Below are positions 8,947-64,000 of a DNA stretch of 64,000 nt, piece by piece. The position numbers and the translations under genes are program-made. Numbering within the stretch: the stretch's first letter is position 1; each line of letters opens with the position of its first letter. The notes below the pieces were generated by a model. That model was not told the DNA's origin and made no database searches. It saw only the letters and a program-made list of their open reading frames with translations. Where the stretch lies: positions 1,607-65,606 of the forward strand of contig CAZOJF010000001.1 of assembly GCA_964580085.1 (NCBI GenBank). Direction: 5' to 3'. Source of the stretch: an uncultured Candidatus Saccharibacteria bacterium. GTDB taxonomy: Bacteria; Patescibacteriota; Minisyncoccia; Minisyncoccales; CG1-02-41-26.

Positions 8947-9399
8947 ATGAGGATTATATTAGAAAACAAAAAGGCTTTATTCGATTATTCTATACTAGAA
9001 AAATTTGAAGCTGGCATAGTGTTAAAAGGATTAGAAGTAAAATCTATAAAAACCGGAAGAATGAACTTACGAGGCTCTTTCGTAGTCATTAATCAATCCC
9101 CTACTGAAGTTTTTTTAATTGGTGCCAATATCCCTCCTTACCAACCCAATAACACACCTGATGATTATGACCCCAAAAGGAGTCGTAAACTTCTCTTGAA
9201 AAAAACCGAAATAAAGCATTTGATAGGTAAATCCAGGGAAAGAGGTTTGACAATGGTGCCTATAAAAGTGTATACTATTAAGGGTAAAATAAAGATAGAG
9301 TTTGCCATAGTAAAAGGAAAGAAAAAATTTGATAAGAGAGAACAAATTAAGAAAAGACAGACTAAGAAAGAAATCGAAAGAGAAATAAAGAGGGGGTGA
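8947..9399 (+). CDS. smpB: SsrA-binding protein SmpB
   Basis: 150 aa. FDYSILEKFEAGIVLKGLEVKSIKTGRMNLRGSFV matches the conserved SmpB N-terminus. A basic C-terminal tail is present. tmRNA lies immediately downstream. Confidence 0.9.
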   Translation: MRIILENKKALFDYSILEKFEAGIVLKGLEVKSIKTGRMNLRGSFVVINQSPTEVFLIGANIPPYQPNNTPDDYDPKRSRKLLLKKTEIKHLIGKSRERGLTMVPIKVYTIKGKIKIEFAIVKGKKKFDKREQIKKRQTKKEIEREIKRG

Positions 9400-9762
9400 A
9401 TGTTTTGACAGAAATCTTATCTGGAATAAGCAAGGCGAGTTCTGAAATCTCGTTAAACTTTCAGAAATTTAATAAGTGCAAACTTATTTTCAAAACCAGC
9501 TTACGCTTTTGCGTAATGGTTGCCTCGAACTGAGTTTACTCTCGTTTGAAGCCATCTCCCTATTGATTCTCAATAAATAGTAAGAGGTGTTATACATTGA
9601 GATAGATAATTATCTTGTTCCGAATAATTATTAAAACTAAGGAACTCGGATATCAAAAGTTTTGTTTATTTTATATTTTGTTATCTTAAAAATAAAATAA
9701 ACTAACCTTGTAGAATTGTTTCGGAAAAATTTTTGGACGCGAGTTCAATCTCGCCATCTCCA
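9392..9762 (+). ncRNA. ssrA: tmRNA (ssrA), about 370 nt. The encoded tag peptide is ANLFSKPAYAFA.
   Basis: The 3' end GGACGCGAGTTCAATCTCGCCATCTCCA is a tRNA-like T-arm plus acceptor, matching the tmRNA 3' consensus GGACGCGGGTTCAACTCCCGCCAGCTCCACCA (CCA is not encoded). The 5' strand GGGGGTG at 9392-9398 pairs with CATCTCC through G-U wobbles. The downstream AAUGUUUUGACAG resembles the tmRNA D-loop analogue. An internal ORF GCA AAC TTA TTT TCA AAA CCA GCT TAC GCT TTT GCG TAA (9478-9516) encodes a tag ending in YAFA. Confidence 0.85.
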
Positions 9763-9780
9763 CTAATTATTAAAATTAAA

Positions 9781-13484: not shown

Positions 13485-14058
13485 CGCTATGATATTAGAA
13501 GGGGTTTCCCATTTAAATTCTGGATTAGGATTGTTATACCAAAGATTTTCTTGGGGATGAGTAGGTGAAAAAATCTTCGGAAGGTTGGGGAGATTATCAA
13601 TTTCTGTGTCTGCCTCTGTGATTAAAAAAATGCTTCTGGAGTAAGTTTTAAAATATTAGTTCCCCTGCCATCAGCAGCTAATGCTGCTACTTTTGTATAT
13701 AGTTTTTATAGATTTTAATATTATAACATGCTTATTATGACCTGAGTCAATAGCTTAAACTGTGGATAACTTTTTATTTAAAAGAAAAATGAATAAAGAA
13801 TAAAATTTTTAATAGTTTAGTAACAAAAAGATAAAATTTATTTAATTTTAACTGAATTTAGACCAAATGTTCTACAAAAAATAAAAATAAGTTAAAATGT
13901 TATAAAACATTGATAAACATTGATAAATATTATTTTAAATAACTATATCGGATAAGGTAAATTACTTAAAATATATAAATTATTAATTTAATTCGTTTCT
14001 TAAAAGATATATTTATTAATGTCATTTAGAAAAGTGTTATAAAAACTGAAGATAGATG

Positions 14059-14087
14059 TTGACAATCTATTCTAGAAAGAATAAAAT
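14059..14087 (+). promoter_or_regulatory. Sigma70-like promoter (TTGACA-17 nt-TAAAAT) upstream of the small HTH gene
   Basis: TTGACA at 14059-14064, a 17-nt spacer, and TAAAAT at 14082-14087. This lies about 45 nt upstream of the ATG at 14131. Confidence 0.45.
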
Positions 14088-14130
14088 TAATAAAAGATAT
14101 AAAACATTAATAATATAAAAATTAAAAGAC

Positions 14131-14346
14131 ATGGACACTTCAAAAAAATATTTAACTATTAAGGAAGTATCAAGAATTTTAGGGGTTACTCCTCTAACTC
14201 TGAGGAATTGGGACAAGAAGAAAAAGTTAAAAGCATATCGTAATCCTATAAATAATTATCGAGTTTATAAGCCCGAAGAAATTCAACTTTTTTTACGTAA
14301 AATTGAATCCGGGAGAAGGCCAGGAGAAAAGATTTTTCTAGGATAA
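14131..14346 (+). CDS. Small MerR-superfamily / excisionase-type helix-turn-helix DNA-binding protein
   Basis: 71 aa. LTIKEVSRILGVTPLTLRNWDKKKKLKAYR matches the excisionase-family HTH (MerR-like). It is preceded by a 650-bp AT-rich non-coding region. Confidence 0.6.
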   Translation: MDTSKKYLTIKEVSRILGVTPLTLRNWDKKKKLKAYRNPINNYRVYKPEEIQLFLRKIESGRRPGEKIFLG

Positions 14347-15603: not shown

Positions 15604-18384
15604 TTAAAATAGATTTTTTTGTCCTGAAATTTTTCTTGCTTCTCCTTTGGAAAATATATTAATTTTTCCATACTCGCCATCATACCCAGGTTCAACATAT
15701 ATTTCTTGTTTTCTTAATCTGGATATCGCTTTTGCTATTTCTGGTAAGTTCGCTTGCTCCAAGTCAGATATAGAAGTATCAAGTAAAACATTAAATTCTG
15801 AACCAAATTTCTGGATTAAATCTTCATATTCTTTTTCTACTCCCTTCGTCCCAACTCCTATTTTCAATAAATCAGCAATTATATCTTTCAACGGAACCAG
15901 GCTTTTAAAAGGAATTACATTTTCCGGTTTAAATCCTTCCGGCTTGTCAGCTAATTCTTCTACCCTGCTTAAAACCCCTATGGTCAACGGCCTTCCGCAC
16001 ACGGGACAAATTCCATTATACTTTTTTGTTTCTTGAGGAGAAGAACTAATTTCACATTTTCTATGACCATCATAATAATACTTACCTTGTTGAGGAAAAA
16101 ATTCAATAGTATAGAGAAATTTTTTAGGATCTCCTGATATTATCGCTTCAATTATTGCTGGATAGCTAAGCTCTGTGTCAAAAACATTTGCCTCCCTGCC
16201 AATATGAGGTGCCGAGTTATGAACAATAAATCCATTAGCTATATAATTCTCATAATTAGAAATTGTTAAATCATAGACGTATTCACAATTAGATTTTATT
16301 CTTTTTGTCTCCTGTATAGGTTCCCAAATAATATCGCTTCTAACAAACTTTTTAATTTTTTCTAAAATGGGATTTATTTTTGGGTATTTTAAAAATATTT
16401 TCAAAAATTCTTTAACATTACCTCGTTTTAAAGTATTGTTATGTTTTAAGTGATAATATAATCTCCCAGGGATATCATGGTAAGAAACTTTTAATGCTTG
16501 TTTGACTCTCAAAATTTCTTCCTTAAGCGGTAACGGATCAGTAAAAGAGTTTTTAGGACTTTGTTGGAGGGAAAAAAGATATTTAGATAGTTTTTCTTTT
16601 TTAGGAACAGAATTAAATCCGATTTCTTCCATAAAAATCTTTAATTGTTCATGTCCATATATGCTAATTTTATATCTCCATTTCTTTTTATTTTTCTCAA
16701 AATCATGATAAATAGAAGCATTTATCCCAAATTTTAATAAAAGCACTTGGACTTCTTTTATTAAAACCAGACTAGAAGAAGAAATCTGAATAGAATGATC
16801 CGCAATTGTCCCTTCGGCATCAAATAGACCTCTTAAAAATGCTGCTATTTCTTTTTTAGGGAGACCAAAAATAAAATCTGATATTTGTCGTTTGGGTGAA
16901 TAAACCAAAATCTTTGAATCTATTTTCTGAAGATATTCAGCCAAATAAGCGGGATATCTAAATCCATTTGCATTTCCCTGCTCTTTTTTAACTTTGCCTT
17001 CAATGTTAAAAACTTTTTTAATTAATTTTTGATAATGTGTTAATAAATTTATGTCTTTATCAGTTAAAGAAAGATTTTTTATTTTACCTTTAGAATGCCC
17101 AATTCCGCCATCTCCCACCACATATCCTAAAATTTGACAAAATTCCTCATTCGTAAATTTCGGCGCTTTCTCTAAAGGAAATCTATACACCATAAATTTC
17201 TTCTTAAATCTATTCTTGTCAACTCCTAAATATCCACAGTATTTATTTATAAAACTTTCTTTTGGAGTCTTAACTTTATATTTTTCAAATATCCAAACAC
17301 AATCTTCACTAACTCCAATATATTTCCCAATATCTTTTTGGCTTTTTTTGTTCTTTATCCGTAATGCTCTCAAATATTCAATACCCTTAGGAAGAATCTT
17401 AACTTCATGATCAATACTAAAGAGAGGTAGCTTTTTAGATTTTCCCTTACTAGAAATTTGTCTTAAACAAGCTACTAAATCATTTTTTTTCAGTTCGGAA
17501 GCTTTTCTTTCTATAATTTCTTCATTTTCTAGAACAAAAAAACGATGTTCGGGAGTGGTAATAATTTCTTTAGTTCTGGTTGTTATTTTACAAAGAACTG
17601 GGGGACTAGATAGTTTATGTAATTTAGAGATTTTAGCATCTATTTGTTTCAGATTGCCAACGAAATTAATACTTAATGCTTTGGATGGATTTAAGTCTTT
17701 AATTGGTTTGGGTTTACCATAAATTGTATAAATATTAGTATCTGGATGAACGCAATGAGCATCCGAATTTGATATTAAAGTAATTTTTCTAACATCAGGC
17801 ATTCTCCAGAGCATTTTGGGGTCTGCTGAAAGACCTGTCTCTCCAGCAAAAATATATTTTGAATAATCTTCAAAACATTCTTTTAAGGAATCAAAGCCAG
17901 ATTTTGAGCCAAATAAACCAAACCATGGAGTCATTACATGGGCCGGGATAATTAAACAATCCGAAGAAATGTTTAAAATAATCTTAACCAATTCCTGGGC
18001 ATCAATCCCTAATATAGGCCTGCCATCAGATTTTAAATTTCCTATCCATCCAAGTTGAGTGTTTATTTTTTCAACGGTTTTAAAATCAGGAGCCAAAACT
18101 AAAATATGGATTTTTCTGACTTTCCCATTTTTGGAATAGATACAACTAATTTCAGAAGTTAAAATAAATCTTGTTTTACTATTTTTTAATTTAAACAATC
18201 CTGGTTCAGCTGGTTCCAGTTTTTCTTTTAAATTATTAAACCATTCTGGATGAGTAAAGTCTCCTGTGCCTAAAACATCAATTCCCTTGATCACTGCTTG
18301 TTCCTCTAAATGTTCTAAATCAGATTGAGGAGAAGTAGCTCTGGAATATTTAGAATGGATATGAAAATCAGCAATAAATTTCAT
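15604..18384 (-). CDS. PHP-domain nuclease of the EndoQ/TIGR00375 type, interrupted by an in-frame intein. The extein is about 413 aa.
   Basis: N-extein MKFIADFHIHSKYSRATSPQ...LISNSDAH and C-extein SAPHIGRE...CPVCGRPLTIGVLSRVEELAD (Zn finger) together match PHP/EndoQ-like proteins. A 513-aa intein occupies residues 211-723. Confidence 0.65.
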   Translation of the reverse strand: MKFIADFHIHSKYSRATSPQSDLEHLEEQAVIKGIDVLGTGDFTHPEWFNNLKEKLEPAEPGLFKLKNSKTRFILTSEISCIYSKNGKVRKIHILVLAPDFKTVEKINTQLGWIGNLKSDGRPILGIDAQELVKIILNISSDCLIIPAHVMTPWFGLFGSKSGFDSLKECFEDYSKYIFAGETGLSADPKMLWRMPDVRKITLISNSDAHCVHPDTNIYTIYGKPKPIKDLNPSKALSINFVGNLKQIDAKISKLHKLSSPPVLCKITTRTKEIITTPEHRFFVLENEEIIERKASELKKNDLVACLRQISSKGKSKKLPLFSIDHEVKILPKGIEYLRALRIKNKKSQKDIGKYIGVSEDCVWIFEKYKVKTPKESFINKYCGYLGVDKNRFKKKFMVYRFPLEKAPKFTNEEFCQILGYVVGDGGIGHSKGKIKNLSLTDKDINLLTHYQKLIKKVFNIEGKVKKEQGNANGFRYPAYLAEYLQKIDSKILVYSPKRQISDFIFGLPKKEIAAFLRGLFDAEGTIADHSIQISSSSLVLIKEVQVLLLKFGINASIYHDFEKNKKKWRYKISIYGHEQLKIFMEEIGFNSVPKKEKLSKYLFSLQQSPKNSFTDPLPLKEEILRVKQALKVSYHDIPGRLYYHLKHNNTLKRGNVKEFLKIFLKYPKINPILEKIKKFVRSDIIWEPIQETKRIKSNCEYVYDLTISNYENYIANGFIVHNSAPHIGREANVFDTELSYPAIIEAIISGDPKKFLYTIEFFPQQGKYYYDGHRKCEISSSPQETKKYNGICPVCGRPLTIGVLSRVEELADKPEGFKPENVIPFKSLVPLKDIIADLLKIGVGTKGVEKEYEDLIQKFGSEFNVLLDTSISDLEQANLPEIAKAISRLRKQEIYVEPGYDGEYGKINIFSKGEARKISGQKNLF
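16216..17754 (-). mobile_element. Class 1 intein with a LAGLIDADG homing-endonuclease domain, inserted in the NSDAH motif of the PHP-domain host protein
   Basis: Starts at Cys (CVHPDTNIYT, block A). Block B TPEH. Two LAGLIDADG motifs (LGYVVGDGGIGH and FLRGLFDAEGTI). Block F YVYDLTIS. Block G NGFIVHN followed by a +1 Ser. The Cys codon was checked at 17752-17754 and the terminal Asn codon at 16216-16218 on the minus strand. Confidence 0.85.
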
Positions 18385-20538: not shown

Positions 20539-21156
20539 TTAAAGACTTATTTTTTCAATCTCTTTTTTAAAAAAACTCTCTATTTTTAGTTGGTCAACTT
20601 TTTCTTTTAGAAATTGTATCTCAATTTCTTTAATGTCTTTTAAATAAATTAATTGCTCTAAAAACAATCTAGGATCGAATTCTTGCCCATATCTTTTTTT
20701 AGAAAGAGCAATAATCTTTTCTAAAGAAACAACTCCTTTTTTTATAACAAAATATAAATCTACATAATCTCTTAGGGTAGACCTCCTGCCCAAGGCATAC
20801 GCTTTCATCACAGCAATCTCCTCACTTGATAAAATTTTAATCCCTTGATATTCAATGGGCTTTGAAATCATTGGAAAAGCATATTTTATAAAAGAAACAC
20901 TAACTCCATTAATTGTCACTGTTAATTGTTCAGGGTGATTTACAATAATCTCTATTTCCGAACCCTTAAAGATTCTTTGCACTTTAGGAAGTAATCCTTT
21001 TGGGATCTCTTTTCCCCAAAAAAAATCAAAATCAACTGAGACTCTGTGGCCTAATTGTAAGGACATACCTGTCCCACCAGCTAAATAGAACTCCGGGAAA
21101 TTCTTAAGTTTGTTAAATATTTTTTTGGCTTCTGATGTAATCGCTTCTTGATGCAT
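20539..21156 (-). CDS. Pol-beta-superfamily nucleotidyltransferase, AbiEii/AbiGii toxin-like (DUF1814-like)
   Basis: FYLAGGTGMSLQLGHRVSVDFDFF matches the GG-x(9-13)-DhD nucleotidyltransferase motif and the AbiEii GGTAL...R.S.DIDF pattern. 205 aa. Confidence 0.5.
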   Translation of the reverse strand: MHQEAITSEAKKIFNKLKNFPEFYLAGGTGMSLQLGHRVSVDFDFFWGKEIPKGLLPKVQRIFKGSEIEIIVNHPEQLTVTINGVSVSFIKYAFPMISKPIEYQGIKILSSEEIAVMKAYALGRRSTLRDYVDLYFVIKKGVVSLEKIIALSKKRYGQEFDPRLFLEQLIYLKDIKEIEIQFLKEKVDQLKIESFFKKEIEKISL

Positions 21157-21427
21157 ATTTTAATTTTTTAATACCGAGTAAAAGAGAAACTAATTTTAGG
21201 GCAGGAGCCCTAAATTCCGTTTGGGGAATCTCTTCAATAAATCTCTTTACATTTTCTTTCCCATAAAATTTAAATACCCAAAGCCAATGTTCCCATTTAC
21301 CATAATTAACAGTATTGATAATTATTGTTCTCTTGTTTTTCTGAAGATTAATTGAAGAAAATTTGTATGACCAAAATAAGGGCTTAAAGAATGAGGGGAT
21401 TTTTGAATTTTTAGTTTCTATCTTCAT
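21113..21427 (-). CDS. Hypothetical small protein upstream of the nucleotidyltransferase (possible antitoxin partner or remnant)
   Basis: 104-aa ORF that overlaps the nucleotidyltransferase start by 44 nt. No recognisable motif. Confidence 0.25.
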   Translation of the reverse strand: MKIETKNSKIPSFFKPLFWSYKFSSINLQKNKRTIIINTVNYGKWEHWLWVFKFYGKENVKRFIEEIPQTEFRAPALKLVSLLLGIKKLKYASRSDYIRSQKNI

Positions 21428-37467: not shown

Positions 37468-37484
37468 TAAAGTTATAAAACAAT

Positions 37485-39269
37485 ATGAAGTTACCCTTTT
37501 TGAAGAAAAAAAGAGAACAAAAAGAAAGTACTATCCGAACAGAAGTTATTAATATTAAAGATATTATTGCTCCTTCTTCTTTTGAGACCAAACAAAATTT
37601 TTTAAGAGTGGGCGAACGTTTTGCCAAATCTTTCTTTATTTTTTCTTATCCCCGATATCTTTCAACTGGATGGCTATCTCCTATTATAAATATGCAACAT
37701 CCCATGGATATTTCTTTCCATATCCATCCTGTGTCTTCTAATTCTGTTTTAAAAAAACTTAGAAAAAAATTAACAGAAGTTAGAGCTGAGATGATGGAAA
37801 AGGAAGAAAAAGGATTAATACGAGACCCGGTCTTGGAAACTGCTTATCAAGATATAGAAATGTTAAGAGACGGTCTCCAAACTGCTCAAGAAAGAGTTTT
37901 TAAAATTGGAATTTATATTACGGTATATACTGATACTCAAAAAGAATTAAGAAAAATTGAAACTGTACTTCGTTCAATCCTTGAAGCTCGCTTAGTTTAT
38001 ATAAGACCAGCTTTATTCCGTCAAAAAGAAGGATTTGTTAGTTGCAACCCATATTGTTTAGACCAACTCATTGTCCACACAACAATGAATACTGCCCCCT
38101 TATCAAGTATATTCCCCTTTGTTTCCTCTGATCTAAGCGCTAATGAAGGAATTCTCTACGGCATAAATATGCATAATAATTCTTTGGTTTTATTTGATAG
38201 ATTTACTTTAGAAAATGCTAATATGGTAATTTTTGGAATATCTGGAGGAGGTAAGTCTTATGCTATTAAATTAGAAATTTTAAGATATTTAATGCAAGGG
38301 ATAGACACAATCGTGATTGACCCAGAAAATGAATATAAGATTTTATCCGAAGCTGTCGGTGGATCATATTTTAAAATATCTTTAACTTCTCCTGACCATA
38401 TTAATCCTTTTGACCTGCCCCAGCCGATGGAAGACGAAATTCCGGGGAATGTTTTAAAGTCAAATATTATAAATTTAGTTGGTCTTTTGAGAATTATGCT
38501 CGGAGGGTTAACTCCTAAGGAAGATGCTATTATTGATCAAGCTCTTATCGAAACATATGCTTCTCGAGACATTACTCCTGAAAGTGATCCCAATTTATGG
38601 CAAAAAAACATTCCCATTCTTTCTGATTTTGAATCTGTTTTAGAGAATATGACTGGGACTGAATCTTTAGTTGAGAGAGTGAGAAAATTTAGCAGAGGGA
38701 GTTATGCTGACTTCTTTAACCAAAAATCAAATATTTCTATGGATAACAAGTTTGCTGTTTTCGGCATAAGAGATATGGAGGAAGAGTTGCGACCTATAGC
38801 AATGTTTATAATTTTAAGACATATTTGGAACGCTGTTCGTTCGTCTTTAAAGAAAAGAATATTAGTTGTTGATGAAGCTTGGTGGATAATGCAATCTGAA
38901 GATGGAGCTTCGTTTTTATATGGAATTTGTAAAAGAGCAAGAAAGTATTGGCTAGGAGTATCAACTATTACTCAAGATGTTTCTGATTTTATGAAATCAT
39001 CTTATGGGCAACCAATTGTTGCTAATTCTTCTCTTCAACTTTTGATGAAACAAAGTACTTCCAGTATGGAATTAGTTCAAAAAACTTTTAATTTAACCGA
39101 GCAAGAAAAATATCTTTTACTTGAATCAAGTATAGGAGAGGGAATATTTTTTGCTGGACACAAACATGTAGCAATAAGAATTACTGCTTCTTATACAGAA
39201 GATCAAATAATCACAACTTCTCCTGAACAAGTTTTGGAAATAAAAAGAAATAAAAAAATAAATCTTTAA
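37485..39269 (+). CDS. VirB4/TrbE/PrgJ-like type IV secretion ATPase
   Basis: Walker A GISGGGKSYAIK, Walker B ILVVDEAWWIM, and GVSTITQDVSDF (motif C-like). 594 aa. Confidence 0.75.
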   Translation: MKLPFLKKKREQKESTIRTEVINIKDIIAPSSFETKQNFLRVGERFAKSFFIFSYPRYLSTGWLSPIINMQHPMDISFHIHPVSSNSVLKKLRKKLTEVRAEMMEKEEKGLIRDPVLETAYQDIEMLRDGLQTAQERVFKIGIYITVYTDTQKELRKIETVLRSILEARLVYIRPALFRQKEGFVSCNPYCLDQLIVHTTMNTAPLSSIFPFVSSDLSANEGILYGINMHNNSLVLFDRFTLENANMVIFGISGGGKSYAIKLEILRYLMQGIDTIVIDPENEYKILSEAVGGSYFKISLTSPDHINPFDLPQPMEDEIPGNVLKSNIINLVGLLRIMLGGLTPKEDAIIDQALIETYASRDITPESDPNLWQKNIPILSDFESVLENMTGTESLVERVRKFSRGSYADFFNQKSNISMDNKFAVFGIRDMEEELRPIAMFIILRHIWNAVRSSLKKRILVVDEAWWIMQSEDGASFLYGICKRARKYWLGVSTITQDVSDFMKSSYGQPIVANSSLQLLMKQSTSSMELVQKTFNLTEQEKYLLLESSIGEGIFFAGHKHVAIRITASYTEDQIITTSPEQVLEIKRNKKINL

Positions 39270-39671
39270 ATGTCTGAACAAGCAGTAGCAGAAAATCAAT
39301 CCGGGGCAACAAGGCTAATGGAAAACATTTTTTCCATAGAGGGAATTATGATGTTGTCTTTTGCTGCTTTTATTGATGTAGGAGAAGCTGTTTTTGAACT
39401 CATCCCCGTAGTCGGAACAATTATTTCGGCAATACTTGACATTATTGCTTTAATATTTATTGGTCTTTTTTGGATGCGTCTATTCAGAGGGCACGGAATA
39501 ACTGCTACTAAAAAAACTGGTTCTGTATTAAAAAAAATAGCAAAAACCGGGAAAAAATATAAATGGTTAAAACCTTTTTGTATGATTTTTGAAATGATAC
39601 CTATTGCTTCAAGTATTGCCCCTTTGTGGGTAGTGGCTGTATTGCTTGAGCTATCGTCTAGAGAAGATTGA
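39270..39671 (+). CDS. Hypothetical small membrane protein (2-3 TM) in the T4SS-like operon
   Basis: 133 aa with hydrophobic helices (IMMLSFAAFIDVGEAVFELIPVVGTIISAILDIIALIFIGLFW). Confidence 0.4.
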   Translation: MSEQAVAENQSGATRLMENIFSIEGIMMLSFAAFIDVGEAVFELIPVVGTIISAILDIIALIFIGLFWMRLFRGHGITATKKTGSVLKKIAKTGKKYKWLKPFCMIFEMIPIASSIAPLWVVAVLLELSSRED

Positions 39672-39684
39672 AAAAATATTTATT

Positions 39685-42411
39685 ATGGCTATCAGTCCTA
39701 AAATAAAAAAACAAATTATATTTATAATATTGGGTATTATTTTTATATCTTGTTTTTATTTGATATGGAGAACATTTATACCCCAAACAAATACTCCTCC
39801 TCCTGAGGAAAAAATTGAATATGAAAAAAAAGATCTTGTTTATTTCCAAATACCTATTGGGAAAATAGTTGAAAATATTGTTTTGAGCAAAGAAGCTGAA
39901 GAAAAAACTGATGAGATTAAAGCCCGAATAAAAGATGTCCGAGATTCATCTGAAAAATTAAAAGATCTTTCTCAAGAGCTAAAGAAACTTACGGATGAAT
40001 GCACTTGTGGCCAATCTTCTTGCCAAGAAGTTGAATGTAAAAATGGATGTTGTTGCCAAGCGCAAGGATGTTCAGCAATAAATACTTGTTCAAAGCCAGA
40101 GGGATGTTTTATAGAAAGCCCTGGTTGTGACCTTTCAAGTGCTTGCCCAGAATCAAATTGCGATATAGAAAAAATCGAAGAAAAAACGCATGAAATGGAA
40201 GAGTTAATAAACAAAATTGAACAAGAACAAAAAAAAATGTTAGTTGCCCAGCTCTCTATAACTAACGATTATCTAAATTTGAACAAAGTCAAAACAATGA
40301 TTTCTTCAACTACAGAGGCTATTGACTATGAAACCTTTTTTAATAGGAAAGATCTGATTCAAATTGAGAACCAAGAAGAAGTTAAAATAGAAACTTTTTA
40401 TGGCTGGCCAAATACTCCCACGATCGAAAAACAGGGACAGACGTTTTTTGATCCGGCTACTATATATTTTGATAAAACAGAAATAAAAAATGAAAACATT
40501 ATTAGCGCGTCTACATGCTTTGAATTATTCATGATTATCTCCAACCAATCCCCAGATAAAATTGCTAAAATAATGGATGAAAACGCTAAAGAAGTTCTGG
40601 GGAAGATAAACTTTGGAGAATTAATACCATCTGCCGACAGAACAAATGAAATCATACAAAAAACAACCAAGGAAACTATCTCTTCTTTCTCTAATAACTT
40701 GTCTGAAAAAATGTCTGATATGCTTTCCGCGAGAATAGCTGAAGCTATTGTAGAAGAAATGAAAGGAGATTCTGGAATTAAAGCCAATTTACCCGTCAAA
40801 TTAATCGAGCCCATGTCTGTTATATTGCTTAAAGAATTACCGGCCGAATTAAAAACTATTTTTGAGGTCGAAATAAAAACAAATGTTTTAAATATTTTGG
40901 CCAACACTGATTTATTTTCACCTAGAATAAGCAACTTATTTTTTGAAAAATTAGAAAAATTTATTCCTGCTGACCTAGCAAATATTCTTTCTCAAAACAT
41001 TGGGAAGATATTGCCCAATAAGCTCATGGGATTAATAAATGAAGATATTATTAAGGAATTATTTAAATTGAACTTGGATGAAACTCTTTCTAATAAAATA
41101 TTGCAAAGAATAAATTCAACCTTAGATATTTCTCTGTTAGATGAGATTGATCAGCCTCTACACTTAAGTTTGACAAATAGTCTATACCCCGGGATAGAAA
41201 ACTTTTTATCTGAAAATATGCCTCAAACCCTCGGTTTCTCGTTCTCAAATAAAGAAGAGTTAACTATTAATATCCATAAAATCTTGGAAGAAAATTTATT
41301 CGATATTTTACACAAGCACTTAGAAACTGAATTAACCTTGAAACAAGCTCGGGACTTTTCTTTGGCTCTGTCTAATTCCGAGATCCTTCAGAAAAAACTT
41401 GAAGAAGACATCTCTAAAAACTTTGACTCAATGATAGAAGAGAATATTGAAAAAATAAAAAAAGAAATATCATATAATATTTCGGACAAAATATCTTTGG
41501 AAATGTCCCCTGAAATAACTAATTTAGCACTGGAAGAGTTTTCTATTAAGGTCTCCAAAGACCTAGGAAAGATTATTTCTTCGGCAATATCAAAAACCGT
41601 TGAACAAGGAATACTTTTGAATTCTCTTTATGAGGTTTTCCCTTCGTTTGAACAAAAAAACTCTAATGAAGATAAAATCTTTTATCCCCAAGACTGCAAA
41701 TTTATGTTGCCCGGGATAAACTCTTCTGCTAAAGAAGACGAACAATTTGAAGCTTGCTGGGGAACTAAAGCTATCTATGATTCTATTTCTGAACAAATTA
41801 ACGTGATGAACAAGATAATAGAATTAATTCAAGACTCTGAAAAAGGATGCAACCCTAATATTTGTTCCCCTCAGTGTGTAGATGCTACCTGTTATGCTAA
41901 AGATTTTTATTGTGGAGAATTTAAATTAGAAGAATTTTTAGGGGCCTGTAGTGAATGGCAAACATCTTATCCAAATGGGCCTTTGCCATGTAAAAGTGTA
42001 TATTCTGATTTTTATAATCAAAACGGAGAATTCAAAGCTTGTCCGTCTATTTATTTAGCAAACGAGTTGGTAAAAGAATACTATTTAAAGATTGAGGATG
42101 CTCATAAAAAAATAAACGAAATATTTAAAGAAAAATATGACCAAAAAAGTTCAAGTTTTAAAGAATTTATTGAAAAAATCGTTAAAAAGTCAGAACTAAT
42201 AAAAGAGCTCGGGAGTGAATTAACCCAGATGACCAACGAGTGTAAATGTAGCAAGACTTCTCTGTGTGAAAAAATTTCTCCTGGGTGCGAACCAAAAGGG
42301 TGCTCTCTTTCCAGCCAATGTTCTGAAACAGATATTAAAAATATCAACGAAAAAATTAACGATATTGAATATGCTATACAAGATTTATATTATAATGCCA
42401 AACAAAAATAA
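39685..42411 (+). CDS. Large cysteine-rich secreted/membrane-anchored protein
   Basis: N-terminal TM (IFIILGIIFISCFYLIW). Cys clusters CTCGQSSCQEVECKNGCCCQAQGCS and, near the C-terminus, GCNPNICSPQCVDATCY. Start set at the ATG at 39685; the ORF track used an upstream UUG at 39646 that overlaps the previous gene. Confidence 0.6.
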   Translation: MAISPKIKKQIIFIILGIIFISCFYLIWRTFIPQTNTPPPEEKIEYEKKDLVYFQIPIGKIVENIVLSKEAEEKTDEIKARIKDVRDSSEKLKDLSQELKKLTDECTCGQSSCQEVECKNGCCCQAQGCSAINTCSKPEGCFIESPGCDLSSACPESNCDIEKIEEKTHEMEELINKIEQEQKKMLVAQLSITNDYLNLNKVKTMISSTTEAIDYETFFNRKDLIQIENQEEVKIETFYGWPNTPTIEKQGQTFFDPATIYFDKTEIKNENIISASTCFELFMIISNQSPDKIAKIMDENAKEVLGKINFGELIPSADRTNEIIQKTTKETISSFSNNLSEKMSDMLSARIAEAIVEEMKGDSGIKANLPVKLIEPMSVILLKELPAELKTIFEVEIKTNVLNILANTDLFSPRISNLFFEKLEKFIPADLANILSQNIGKILPNKLMGLINEDIIKELFKLNLDETLSNKILQRINSTLDISLLDEIDQPLHLSLTNSLYPGIENFLSENMPQTLGFSFSNKEELTINIHKILEENLFDILHKHLETELTLKQARDFSLALSNSEILQKKLEEDISKNFDSMIEENIEKIKKEISYNISDKISLEMSPEITNLALEEFSIKVSKDLGKIISSAISKTVEQGILLNSLYEVFPSFEQKNSNEDKIFYPQDCKFMLPGINSSAKEDEQFEACWGTKAIYDSISEQINVMNKIIELIQDSEKGCNPNICSPQCVDATCYAKDFYCGEFKLEEFLGACSEWQTSYPNGPLPCKSVYSDFYNQNGEFKACPSIYLANELVKEYYLKIEDAHKKINEIFKEKYDQKSSSFKEFIEKIVKKSELIKELGSELTQMTNECKCSKTSLCEKISPGCEPKGCSLSSQCSETDIKNINEKINDIEYAIQDLYYNAKQK

Positions 42412-62552: not shown

Positions 62553-64000
62553 TTAGATTATCTTGGATTCATCATCTTCTTCAACTTCTTCTTCCTCTTC
62601 TTTCTTTCCTGGAGAGAGGTTTTCACCTTTCGTTTTTTTTAATTTTTTCCATGCTCTCCTTCTACTAACCGGAGGAGTACCTTTATCTGGTTGATCCGGA
62701 TTTGTTGGTCCAGTATCTGTAGTCTCTTCATGCGATAAACCAGGCGTTTCTTTTCCATCTTGATTAAAATCAATCCCCAAGTTTTTCCCAGCATTATTAC
62801 TGATATATTTATGAGCGGCAGGAACATTCTCGCTGTAGTAAACTTCATTCGCCACATTATTTTTAAAGCTTTCAAAGAAATCATCTCCGAATTGTTTTGC
62901 CATTGCACTAATTTTAGATCCTTTTAAAGATTTGTGAAAAACTTCTGACTCTAGAGCAGTATTCATTGTCTGTTTGGACCATTTAGATATGTCTTTTTCA
63001 CTTGCAGTAGCTGCTAGTTTTTGAGATACGGTTTTGTATTTAATAATATCTTTTTCATCCATAAAAACTCCTGCTTCTTTAGCCAAATTATCTTCTATCT
63101 CTTTCCCAGTTTTACCGACTATTTTTTCGGCTATTTTTATTTCAGATTTGGCAAAAGTTTTAAATGAGCTTGGGAAGAGCTTAAGAGTGTCTCGCATTAT
63201 CTTTTCCTTATCTTTATCACCAAATCCAACTGCTTTTTCTATCTTATCAATATTCCCTTCTTCTATTATTGTTTGTAATGCTTGTATTCGTTTTGTAGCG
63301 CTAGGACTGTGTAATAAAACATTTTGTTCTTCAAAAGATTTTCCTTTTGCCAGCTCTTTTGCTTTCTGACCTTCTTCTCTCTCATGACGGGCGATATTGG
63401 CTGTCAATCCTCGTCCCGCATATCCTAATAGCCCTCCTCTTGCTTTTTTATTTTCTCCTCCCGTTCCTGTTTCATGTTTACCTATTCTCTTATTCATTAA
63501 TTTTTCGCCGATCCATTTTCTTGGTCTTCTTGTAGCTTTTTCTGCACCTGTCCCTGCTAATTTGGCTCCCCAAGGTATCGCTTTTCTAGCATTGGAAGTA
63601 ATGAAACTTGCCCCCATGGCTCCGGTTTGAAGAGATATAAAGAAGCCAGCGGCAAGGAAGGAGACAGGCACTATATAGCCCATTATTTTTCCCATTGAAC
63701 TCATTTCTCCTAGTAATTCACCCTGAAGCATTAGTCGAGTCATTTCATTCGCGAGATAAATAGTAAAAGCGGCTGGTATCCCGATAAAACACCATTGCAT
63801 AAATTGGCTAAGCCACATATTCCACATTTTTTTTGTACCTGGGAAAATATAACAAAAAAGAGCGAGAGGAGAAAGAATAACAAGCATCCAAAGAGCGATA
63901 TACCTGAAAAGAAAGAGAGCGGAGTAAAGAAGGAAAATAATCCCTGAAAAAAGACTAGACCCAACAAGAAGCAATCCTGTTGCCAGCATACCCGAAGGGC
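62553..64000 (-). CDS. Polytopic membrane protein with a charged, Pro-rich C-terminal tail. It is a possible VirB6/TrbL-like T4SS component, and the 5' end probably lies beyond the window.
   Basis: Several TM helices (LLVGSSLFSGIIFLLYSALFLF..., ILSPLALFCYIF...) and a hydrophilic tail (TGPTNPDQPDKGTPPVSRRRAWKKL...EEEEEVEEDDE). The reading frame stays open upstream of the M at 63989 to the window edge. Confidence 0.35.
   Translation of the reverse strand, partial: PSGMLATGLLLVGSSLFSGIIFLLYSALFLFRYIALWMLVILSPLALFCYIFPGTKKMWNMWLSQFMQWCFIGIPAAFTIYLANEMTRLMLQGELLGEMSSMGKIMGYIVPVSFLAAGFFISLQTGAMGASFITSNARKAIPWGAKLAGTGAEKATRRPRKWIGEKLMNKRIGKHETGTGGENKKARGGLLGYAGRGLTANIARHEREEGQKAKELAKGKSFEEQNVLLHSPSATKRIQALQTIIEEGNIDKIEKAVGFGDKDKEKIMRDTLKLFPSSFKTFAKSEIKIAEKIVGKTGKEIEDNLAKEAGVFMDEKDIIKYKTVSQKLAATASEKDISKWSKQTMNTALESEVFHKSLKGSKISAMAKQFGDDFFESFKNNVANEVYYSENVPAAHKYISNNAGKNLGIDFNQDGKETPGLSHEETTDTGPTNPDQPDKGTPPVSRRRAWKKLKKTKGENLSPGKKEEEEEVEEDDESKII

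Follow-up and report, generated by a model that had tools for sequence, protein, structure and literature searches.

Analysis of a 64,000-nucleotide stretch of DNA from an uncultured Candidatus Saccharibacteria bacterium (contig CAZOJF010000001.1, positions 1,607 to 65,606; from now on referred to as the window, with all coordinates given as window positions) revealed a homologue of endonuclease Q (EndoQ) that is very probably interrupted, at the active site of its PHP domain, by a class-1 intein with a LAGLIDADG homing endonuclease. The precursor gene, identified in the list of open reading frames, lies on the minus strand, as do all of its parts described below (15604..18384, stop codon at 15604-15606), and encodes 926 residues with a single intein. 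The N-extein, representing the PHP-domain part of the host, comprises residues 1-210 (17755..18384) and was delimited by alignment with Pyrococcus furiosus EndoQ (PfuEndoQ). It is followed by the intein, 513 residues running from Cys1 to a terminal His-Asn (residues 211-723, 16216..17754), identified via profiles, an AlphaFold2 model and Foldseek. The C-extein (residues 724-926, 15604..16215) starts at the +1 residue Ser724 and contains a zinc ribbon and an MJ0043_C-type C-terminal domain, based on the PfuEndoQ alignment and a precomputed Pfam match. The boundaries could be read from the motifs NSDAH/C, where Cys is residue 211, and VHN/S, where His-Asn are residues 722-723 and Ser is residue 724 (slashes mark splice junctions throughout). 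Excision of the 513-residue insert leaves a conceptual spliced product of 413 residues.

Precursor, host protein and exactness of the insertion

The insert contains the following motifs (intein numbering): C1, TTPEH (66-70), ILGYVVGDGG (208-217), FLRGLFDAEG (306-315), VYDLT (493-497) and FIVHN (509-513). In precursor numbering, the TxxH block extends from T277 to H280. The Pfam model Intein_splicing (PF14890) scored 91 bits on the precursor and 93 bits on the excised insert (cut-off 35.8), and LAGLIDADG_3 (PF14528) scored 91 and 90 bits, respectively, in two stretches (cut-off 22.5). The ends of the insert were matched by the NCBIfam models intein_Nterm (TIGR01445; 27.1 bits at residues 211-284, cut-off 24.5) and intein_Cterm (TIGR01443; 32.6 bits at residues 702-724, cut-off 15.6). 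Further matches were obtained to the intein parts of NCBIfam models for DnaB, RpoA'', IF-2, ribonucleotide reductase (RNR), RFC and others. An assembly chimera could be ruled out because the identical 926-residue protein is encoded on 19 independent contigs drawn from different Logan, ENA and JGI assemblies; the precursor is therefore not an assembly artefact. The intein is slightly richer in AT than its host, with a GC content of 0.281 compared with 0.324 and 0.343 for the exteins.

The spliced extein yields one unbroken alignment with PfuEndoQ (PDB ID: 5zb8; query 5-399, E 3.8e-56) that crosses the junction, where ISNSDAHSA-PH-IGRE of the window protein is aligned with LSNSDAHSPNPHRLGRE of PfuEndoQ. 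Global alignment gives 36% identity over 392 aligned residues. Window residues H8, H10, E78, H93, R122 and H149 correspond to PfuEndoQ H8, H10, E76, H84, R114 and H139, and E182-S186, N206, D208 and H210 correspond to E167-S171, N191, D193 and H195. The ligands of the two zinc ions (H8, H10, E76, H84, H139 and D193 in PfuEndoQ numbering) as well as R114 and H195 are thus all conserved, and so are the residues of the lesion pocket. In PfuEndoQ, D193 is a zinc ligand and mutation of H195 abolishes activity (PMC5961232). The intein is inserted between H210 (H195 in PfuEndoQ) and S724 (S196), two residues past the zinc ligand D208 (D193). Within the C-extein, the zinc ribbon H774/C777...C793/C796 (15997-16065) corresponds to PfuEndoQ C249, C252, C268 and C271, its first ligand being a histidine, and the C-terminal part carries the precomputed Pfam match MJ0043_C (PF27218). 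Close relatives are named 'endonuclease Q family protein' by NCBI, and the identity of the family as EndoQ was established in 2015 (PMC4357722).

Searching with the spliced sequence identified intein-free homologues of exactly 413 residues and 85-90% identity (P0125-P0131); this search listed neither P0001 nor other carriers and gives no fraction of intein-bearing alleles. Two intein-free homologues were traced to contigs, L009 and L006, with the same neighbouring genes as in the window: upstream, genes for an LDcluster4 protein, a small EF-Tu-D2-like protein and an amino-acid permease and, downstream, an LPG_synthase_TM protein gene and a MerR-type gene, with one additional AmiA-like gene between endoQ and the LPG_synthase_TM gene in L009. 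After removal of the 1539 intein bases, the window gene aligns without gaps over 1242 nucleotides with both empty alleles, at 85.7% and 83.3% nucleotide identity; these alleles occupy positions 2796-4037 of L009 and 4001-5242 of L006. The junction in this alignment reads ...GATGCTCAT/TC..., and the L009 empty allele reads ...AATTCAGATGCTCAT/TCTTCTCAAAAAATTGG... around the insertion point.

These results bear out the structural claims of the initial annotation, made from the sequence alone. It had proposed an intein with canonical blocks and two LAGLIDADG motifs at residues 211-723, and all of these motifs are present, with Pfam and NCBIfam intein and LAGLIDADG models passing their curated cut-offs over this region. 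Its placement of the insertion directly after NSDAH of an EndoQ/TIGR00375-type PHP nuclease agrees with the continuous alignment to PfuEndoQ. The anticipated product of about 413 residues with a zinc finger was found to be 413 residues long with a C-terminal zinc ribbon, and the expected precise 513-residue insertion is reflected in the lengths and gapless DNA alignment of the intein-less syntenic homologues.

Two further observations concern the surroundings of the insertion point. The first 90 nucleotides of the C-extein (16126-16215) are 77% identical to the empty alleles, compared with 83-86% for the whole gene, and are the tied-least or second-least similar stretch; here, SAPHIG of the window protein is replaced by SSQKIG and SAQKIG. 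This divergence could represent a co-conversion tract or target-site divergence. Furthermore, an AbiEii toxin/DUF6922 pair is located between glmS and the LDcluster4 gene (about 20539-21425, minus strand, coordinates mapped from L001 gene calls). It is found in the window and in L009 and is absent from the syntenic intein-less L006, and so represents a toxin-antitoxin insertion close to endoQ that varies between these genomes.

Domain structure, conservation and distribution of the intein allele

An AlphaFold2 model of the intein, built on 16 homologous inteins (pLDDT 90.2, pTM 0.88), consists of five parts. The Hint N-lobe (intein 1-100, 17455..17754), matched by TIGR01445, shows β-strands between residues 7 and 97 and contains block A (CVHPD) and block B (TTPEH, 17545-17559). 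It is followed by a five-helix bundle, assigned as an XRE/Cro-type helix-turn-helix (HTH) domain based on the model helices and the Pfam matches of homologues (intein 122-187, 17194..17391). The LAGLIDADG homing-endonuclease domain has an α/β fold (intein 203-396, 16567..17148), is supported by LAGLIDADG_3 and structural matches, and carries motif 1 (ILGYVVGDGG, 17104-17133) and motif 2 (FLRGLFDAEG, 16810-16839). An extra helical domain, defined by the secondary structure of the model (intein 411-471, 16342..16524), separates the endonuclease from the Hint C-lobe (intein 472-513, 16216..16341), which is identified by TIGR01443 and PDB sequence matches and contains block F (VYDLT, 16264-16278) and block G (FIVHN, 16216-16230). 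Based on alignment, the extra helical domain is absent from variants of the allele of about 445 residues (P0066, P0373 and P0504).

The predicted model has a Hint fold. Its best Foldseek matches in the PDB are the TliVMA intein (7qss, 9e-23), PI-TkoII (2cw7, 7e-21) and PI-PfuI (1dq3, 9e-19), followed by PI-SceI and then the free-standing endonuclease I-DmoI, with intein structures spanning E-values from 9e-23 to 1e-11. The modelled endonuclease domain structurally matches I-DmoI, I-Tsp061I and PI-PfuI, and residues 465-513 are also matched at the sequence level by the PhoCDC21-1 and TFIIB inteins in the PDB.

Conservation at the SDAH/S insertion site, from now on referred to as site C, was assessed by comparing the window intein with 15 others at the same site that are 33-81% identical to it. 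Invariant in all 16 inteins are the splicing residues C1, H3, P4, H70, R71, Y494, D495, H512 and N513 as well as the endonuclease residues G214-D215-G216 and D312-A313-E314-G315. Mean column identity is 0.67 for the LAGLIDADG domain and 0.67 and 0.74 for the two Hint lobes. Compared with the window copy, carriers P0009-P0012 show identities of 65-70% in the intein and of 45-56% in the exteins. The nearest extein relatives are a mixture of a carrier (P0002, exteins 88-90% identical) and non-carriers (P0125-P0128, 90%). The higher identity of inteins than of exteins in several carriers suggests horizontal spread, to which the pattern of presence and absence among near relatives also points. Taken at the level of sequence, the patterns of conservation, identity and presence/absence fit a mobile or recently mobile element.

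To what extent the allele is distributed was addressed by scanning 185,579 GTDB species representatives for the site-C junction DNA pattern. Seven matches were obtained, six of them true site-C loci, the seventh (in Scandinavium) being a chance match. The accepted pattern loses CLHP and CVHP[NS] variants and, because of this restrictiveness, the count of six is a lower bound. These loci are located in one metagenome-assembled genome with the label Saccharibacteria (full-length identity 67%) and five DPANN-type archaea, specifically three Woesearchaeota, one Iainarchaeum and one uncultured archaeon. The site-C allele thus occurs in both bacteria of the Candidate Phyla Radiation (CPR) and DPANN archaea. 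Phages were also considered as close relatives of the intein and rejected: their matches are only 24-32% identical and are to inteins inside terminase or helicase genes.

Proposed splicing and alternative explanations

The following course of events is proposed by analogy with what is known of the intein's family, and this applies to splicing and DNA cleavage as well as to the function of the HTH domain and present-day mobility. The 926-residue precursor would be translated and would be catalytically dead before splicing, as the intein lies between the zinc ligand D208 with the essential H210 on one side and S724 with the remaining fold on the other. An N-S acyl shift would occur at Cys211 and the +1 Ser724 would attack the resulting thioester, after which Asn723, helped by His722, would cyclise and the exteins would be ligated. 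Predicted products are a 413-residue EndoQ with a restored ...SNSDAH-SAPHIGRE... sequence and a free 59-kDa intein, the latter acting as a two-motif LAGLIDADG homing endonuclease. Its HTH and extra helical domains most plausibly extend recognition of the DNA target. The endonuclease would then cut intein-free endoQ at the codons for SDAH/S, followed by copying of the intein into the cut allele via repair.

Several observations weigh against parts of this reading. The spliced protein covers positions 2-374 of the 374 positions of the TIGR00375 profile and scores 185.6 bits, under the curated cut-off of 326.6, and the protein is therefore filed as an EndoQ-family member, not as a TIGR00375 equivalog. 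The window copy shows a minor block-G difference, FIVHN, where most relatives have FITHN. The Pfam HTH matches of the window copy itself fall below their cut-offs (HTH_31, E 0.017; HTH_19, 0.045; HTH_3, 0.12). Across the allele, HTH_19 is matched in 9 of the 16 members (best 1.2e-6) and HTH_3 in six (best 4.8e-9), and carriers P0004 and P0373 are labelled 'XRE-family HTH domain' by JGI; the assignment in the window copy is made because these homologue matches and the predicted fold support it. Lastly, the excess of intein over extein identity could stem from unequal rates of change without any transfer.

Decayed endonucleases are common in inteins. Together with the rarity of the allele in the GTDB scan, this would suit an intein that can still splice but has lost the homing function of its endonuclease and is kept as a vertically inherited relic because its loss must be exact. 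We consider such a relic rather unlikely, however, as even inteins of 33% identity retain both LAGLIDADG motifs with their acidic residues unchanged, the endonuclease domain equals the Hint domain in its degree of conservation, inteins are more similar than exteins in several carriers, and syntenic near relatives carry empty alleles. Complete failure of splicing, which would render endoQ effectively a pseudogene, is in line with the reduced genomes of CPR bacteria and their loss of repair genes. The open reading frame is nevertheless intact across 2.8 kb, the splicing residues and the catalytic residues of the host are all conserved, and numerous samples yielded exactly the same sequence, making a dead insertion extremely improbable.

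Other inteins in repair proteins are documented to splice conditionally, and here an XRE-type HTH embedded in an intein and kept in both bacterial and archaeal carriers is combined with a host that is a DNA-damage enzyme. One could therefore envisage a domesticated intein in which splicing, and with it EndoQ activation, is gated by DNA binding of the HTH or by the redox state of Cys211, or in which the excised intein serves as an XRE-type regulator. This seems quite improbable, since no sequence feature demands conditional splicing, intein endonucleases such as PI-SceI, PI-PfuI and PI-TkoII, which are among the best structural matches, commonly possess additional domains for DNA binding, and the EndoQ of close relatives works without an intein. 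We would give just as little credence to a broader version, according to which the SDAH/S allele represents an undescribed intein lineage that moves between CPR bacteria and DPANN archaea sharing habitats and whose XRE-type HTH either makes EndoQ splicing conditional on DNA binding, resulting in post-translational activation at DNA, or turns the excised intein into a DNA-binding regulator. A splicing-competent intein with a homing endonuclease thus remains the preferred reading.

EndoQ inteins at other sites, genomic context and known systems

Among EndoQ homologues, a search with the full-length protein revealed more than 100 clusters that bear Intein_splicing and/or LAGLIDADG_3 domains. They are mostly found in Patescibacteria (Nealsonbacteria, Gribaldobacteria, Wildermuthbacteria, Parcubacteria and Paceibacterota) and additionally in DPANN and Thermococcales archaea. 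Existing names include 'PHP family Zn ribbon phosphoesterase/intein/homing endonuclease', 'LAGLIDADG family homing endonuclease' and 'Mja hyp1 intein'. Mapping the breaks of homologues against the spliced sequence identified at least five insertion sites in the EndoQ family, located at zinc-ligand, lesion-pocket or zinc-ribbon motifs; the proteins examined include P0014-P0120, P0365, P0423, P0435, P0004, P0007 and P0057. Site A (VPAH/C.TPW) adjoins the residue equivalent to PfuEndoQ H139 and includes a protein of Thermococcus barophilus CH5. Site B (ETGLS/...GN/SDP) is located in the lesion pocket E167-S171 and its inteins end in Gly-Asn. Site C (SDAH/...HN/S) is the site of the window intein, site D (CPV/...HN/CG) lies within the zinc ribbon (P0423), and the intein at site E (PP/C...GQ/SYGKYH) ends in Gln (P0435). 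Two inteins are present in one protein at sites A and C (P0004 and P0007) or A and B (P0057). Inteins at sites A, B, D and E share the host family with the window intein and differ in position. BLASTP of the window protein against site-A and site-B proteins covered the exteins only, and judged by sequence their inteins are unrelated or just distantly related to that of the window.

The site-A intein also shows strain-level presence and absence in a cultured archaeon: T. barophilus CH5 encodes an intein-bearing protein of 819 residues (P0365/P0514, ALM74405.1) and another T. barophilus protein (P0336) has 421 residues. This pair could be tractable for studying the splicing and homing of EndoQ inteins. 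It should also be noted that many proteins of 960-1200 residues (among P0410-P0513) contain a complete N-terminal EndoQ module (about residues 5-415) followed by a long extension, and in P0118 the EndoQ module is paired with UvrD-helicase Pfam domains. In GenBank, stand-alone patescibacterial EndoQ proteins of 415 residues frequently bear the name 'DNA helicase UvrD', apparently transferred from the annotation of such fusions.

The endoQ locus sits on no obvious mobile element. The window has a GC content of about 31% and encodes ordinary chromosomal genes (isoleucyl- and arginyl-tRNA synthetases, GlmS, a class-A penicillin-binding protein and a histidine kinase) as well as a complete bacterial transfer-messenger RNA gene (9392-9765, plus strand; Rfam RF00023, 126 bits) with the tag peptide ANLFSKPAYAFA. 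This RNA gene confirms the bacterial origin of the window. All closest relatives of the window EndoQ protein are from Patescibacteria; the organism is a CPR bacterium. No further inteins were found in the 64,000 nucleotides. Elsewhere in the window, a TraG-like P-loop ATPase gene (37479-39266, plus) is followed by an open reading frame of 925 residues without a Pfam match (39634-42408, plus), and a 481-residue open reading frame (62556-63998, minus) likewise has no Pfam match. A very AT-rich region (13750-14200, GC 0.15-0.18 compared with 0.31 for the window) is located around and just upstream of a small MerR/HTH_17 gene and extends into the gap before a Big_13-like open reading frame.

For annotation purposes, the locus is best described as a single functional endoQ gene that carries a mobile intein, and not as a 926-residue 'hypothetical' protein or 'UvrD helicase'. 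More generally, EndoQ, which occurs in ultra-small CPR bacteria and in DPANN archaea, emerges as a target of inteins at no fewer than five sites, so that a repair nuclease joins the familiar intein hotspots (polymerases, helicases and RNR). The syntenic pairs of filled and empty alleles would be suited to tests of homing and of the part played by the HTH module in target recognition. The element itself is textbook in kind, a class-1 LAGLIDADG intein located at a catalytic motif of an enzyme acting on nucleic acids, and leaves the current understanding of inteins unchanged.

Regarding novelty, the suggestion in the initial annotation that the host family might be new to inteins does not hold: with more than 100 intein-bearing clusters and the name MJ0043_C, the EndoQ family is already known as an intein host in public data. 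That this particular site has not been explicitly described as that of an EndoQ intein may still be correct. MJ0043 is the Methanocaldococcus jannaschii protein listed in InBase and UniProt since the 1990s as host of the Mja Hyp-1 intein. A homologue annotated 'Mja hyp1 intein' in GenBank (P0094, TSC56165.1) carries its intein at site A (PAH/C), and the GTDB scan for the site-C junction gave no match in M. jannaschii, a result also compatible with the same site having another junction sequence. Site C is therefore probably an allele distinct from that of Mja Hyp-1. Using PfuEndoQ as query, a protein search returned Thermococcales only, and a representative search reached intein-bearing archaea, none of the 10 representatives looked up being named Methanocaldococcus. 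Within the indexed open-access literature, we found no paper relevantly joining EndoQ and inteins and no description of Patescibacteria inteins; the main text of Novikova 2016 mentions the PHP domain of PolIII as its sole PHP domain. It may thus be that neither the multi-site picture of EndoQ inteins nor the allele with the HTH domain has yet been reported in print, though the sequences are public.

In agreement with Pfam and NCBI names, Mja Hyp-1 shares both its host family (EndoQ/TIGR00375/COG1379) and its LAGLIDADG type with the window intein. The structurally characterized archaeal TliVMA/PhoVMA inteins, PI-TkoII and PI-PfuI and the yeast intein PI-SceI likewise consist of a Hint domain split by a two-motif LAGLIDADG endonuclease and share with the window intein the class-1 residues (Cys1, TxxH, HN and the +1 nucleophile) and a position at a catalytic motif. 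However, the window intein is only 12-18% identical to them in sequence and resides in a different host protein. Whereas PI-SceI and PI-PfuI contain DRR or stirrup domains, the predicted fold of the window intein includes an XRE-type HTH five-helix domain and a second helical domain. With respect to the host, PfuEndoQ (5zb8 and 7k30) and the spliced window protein have the same domain order but, unlike PfuEndoQ, the window EndoQ is CPR-bacterial, is interrupted by an intein and uses a histidine as the first ligand of its zinc ribbon.

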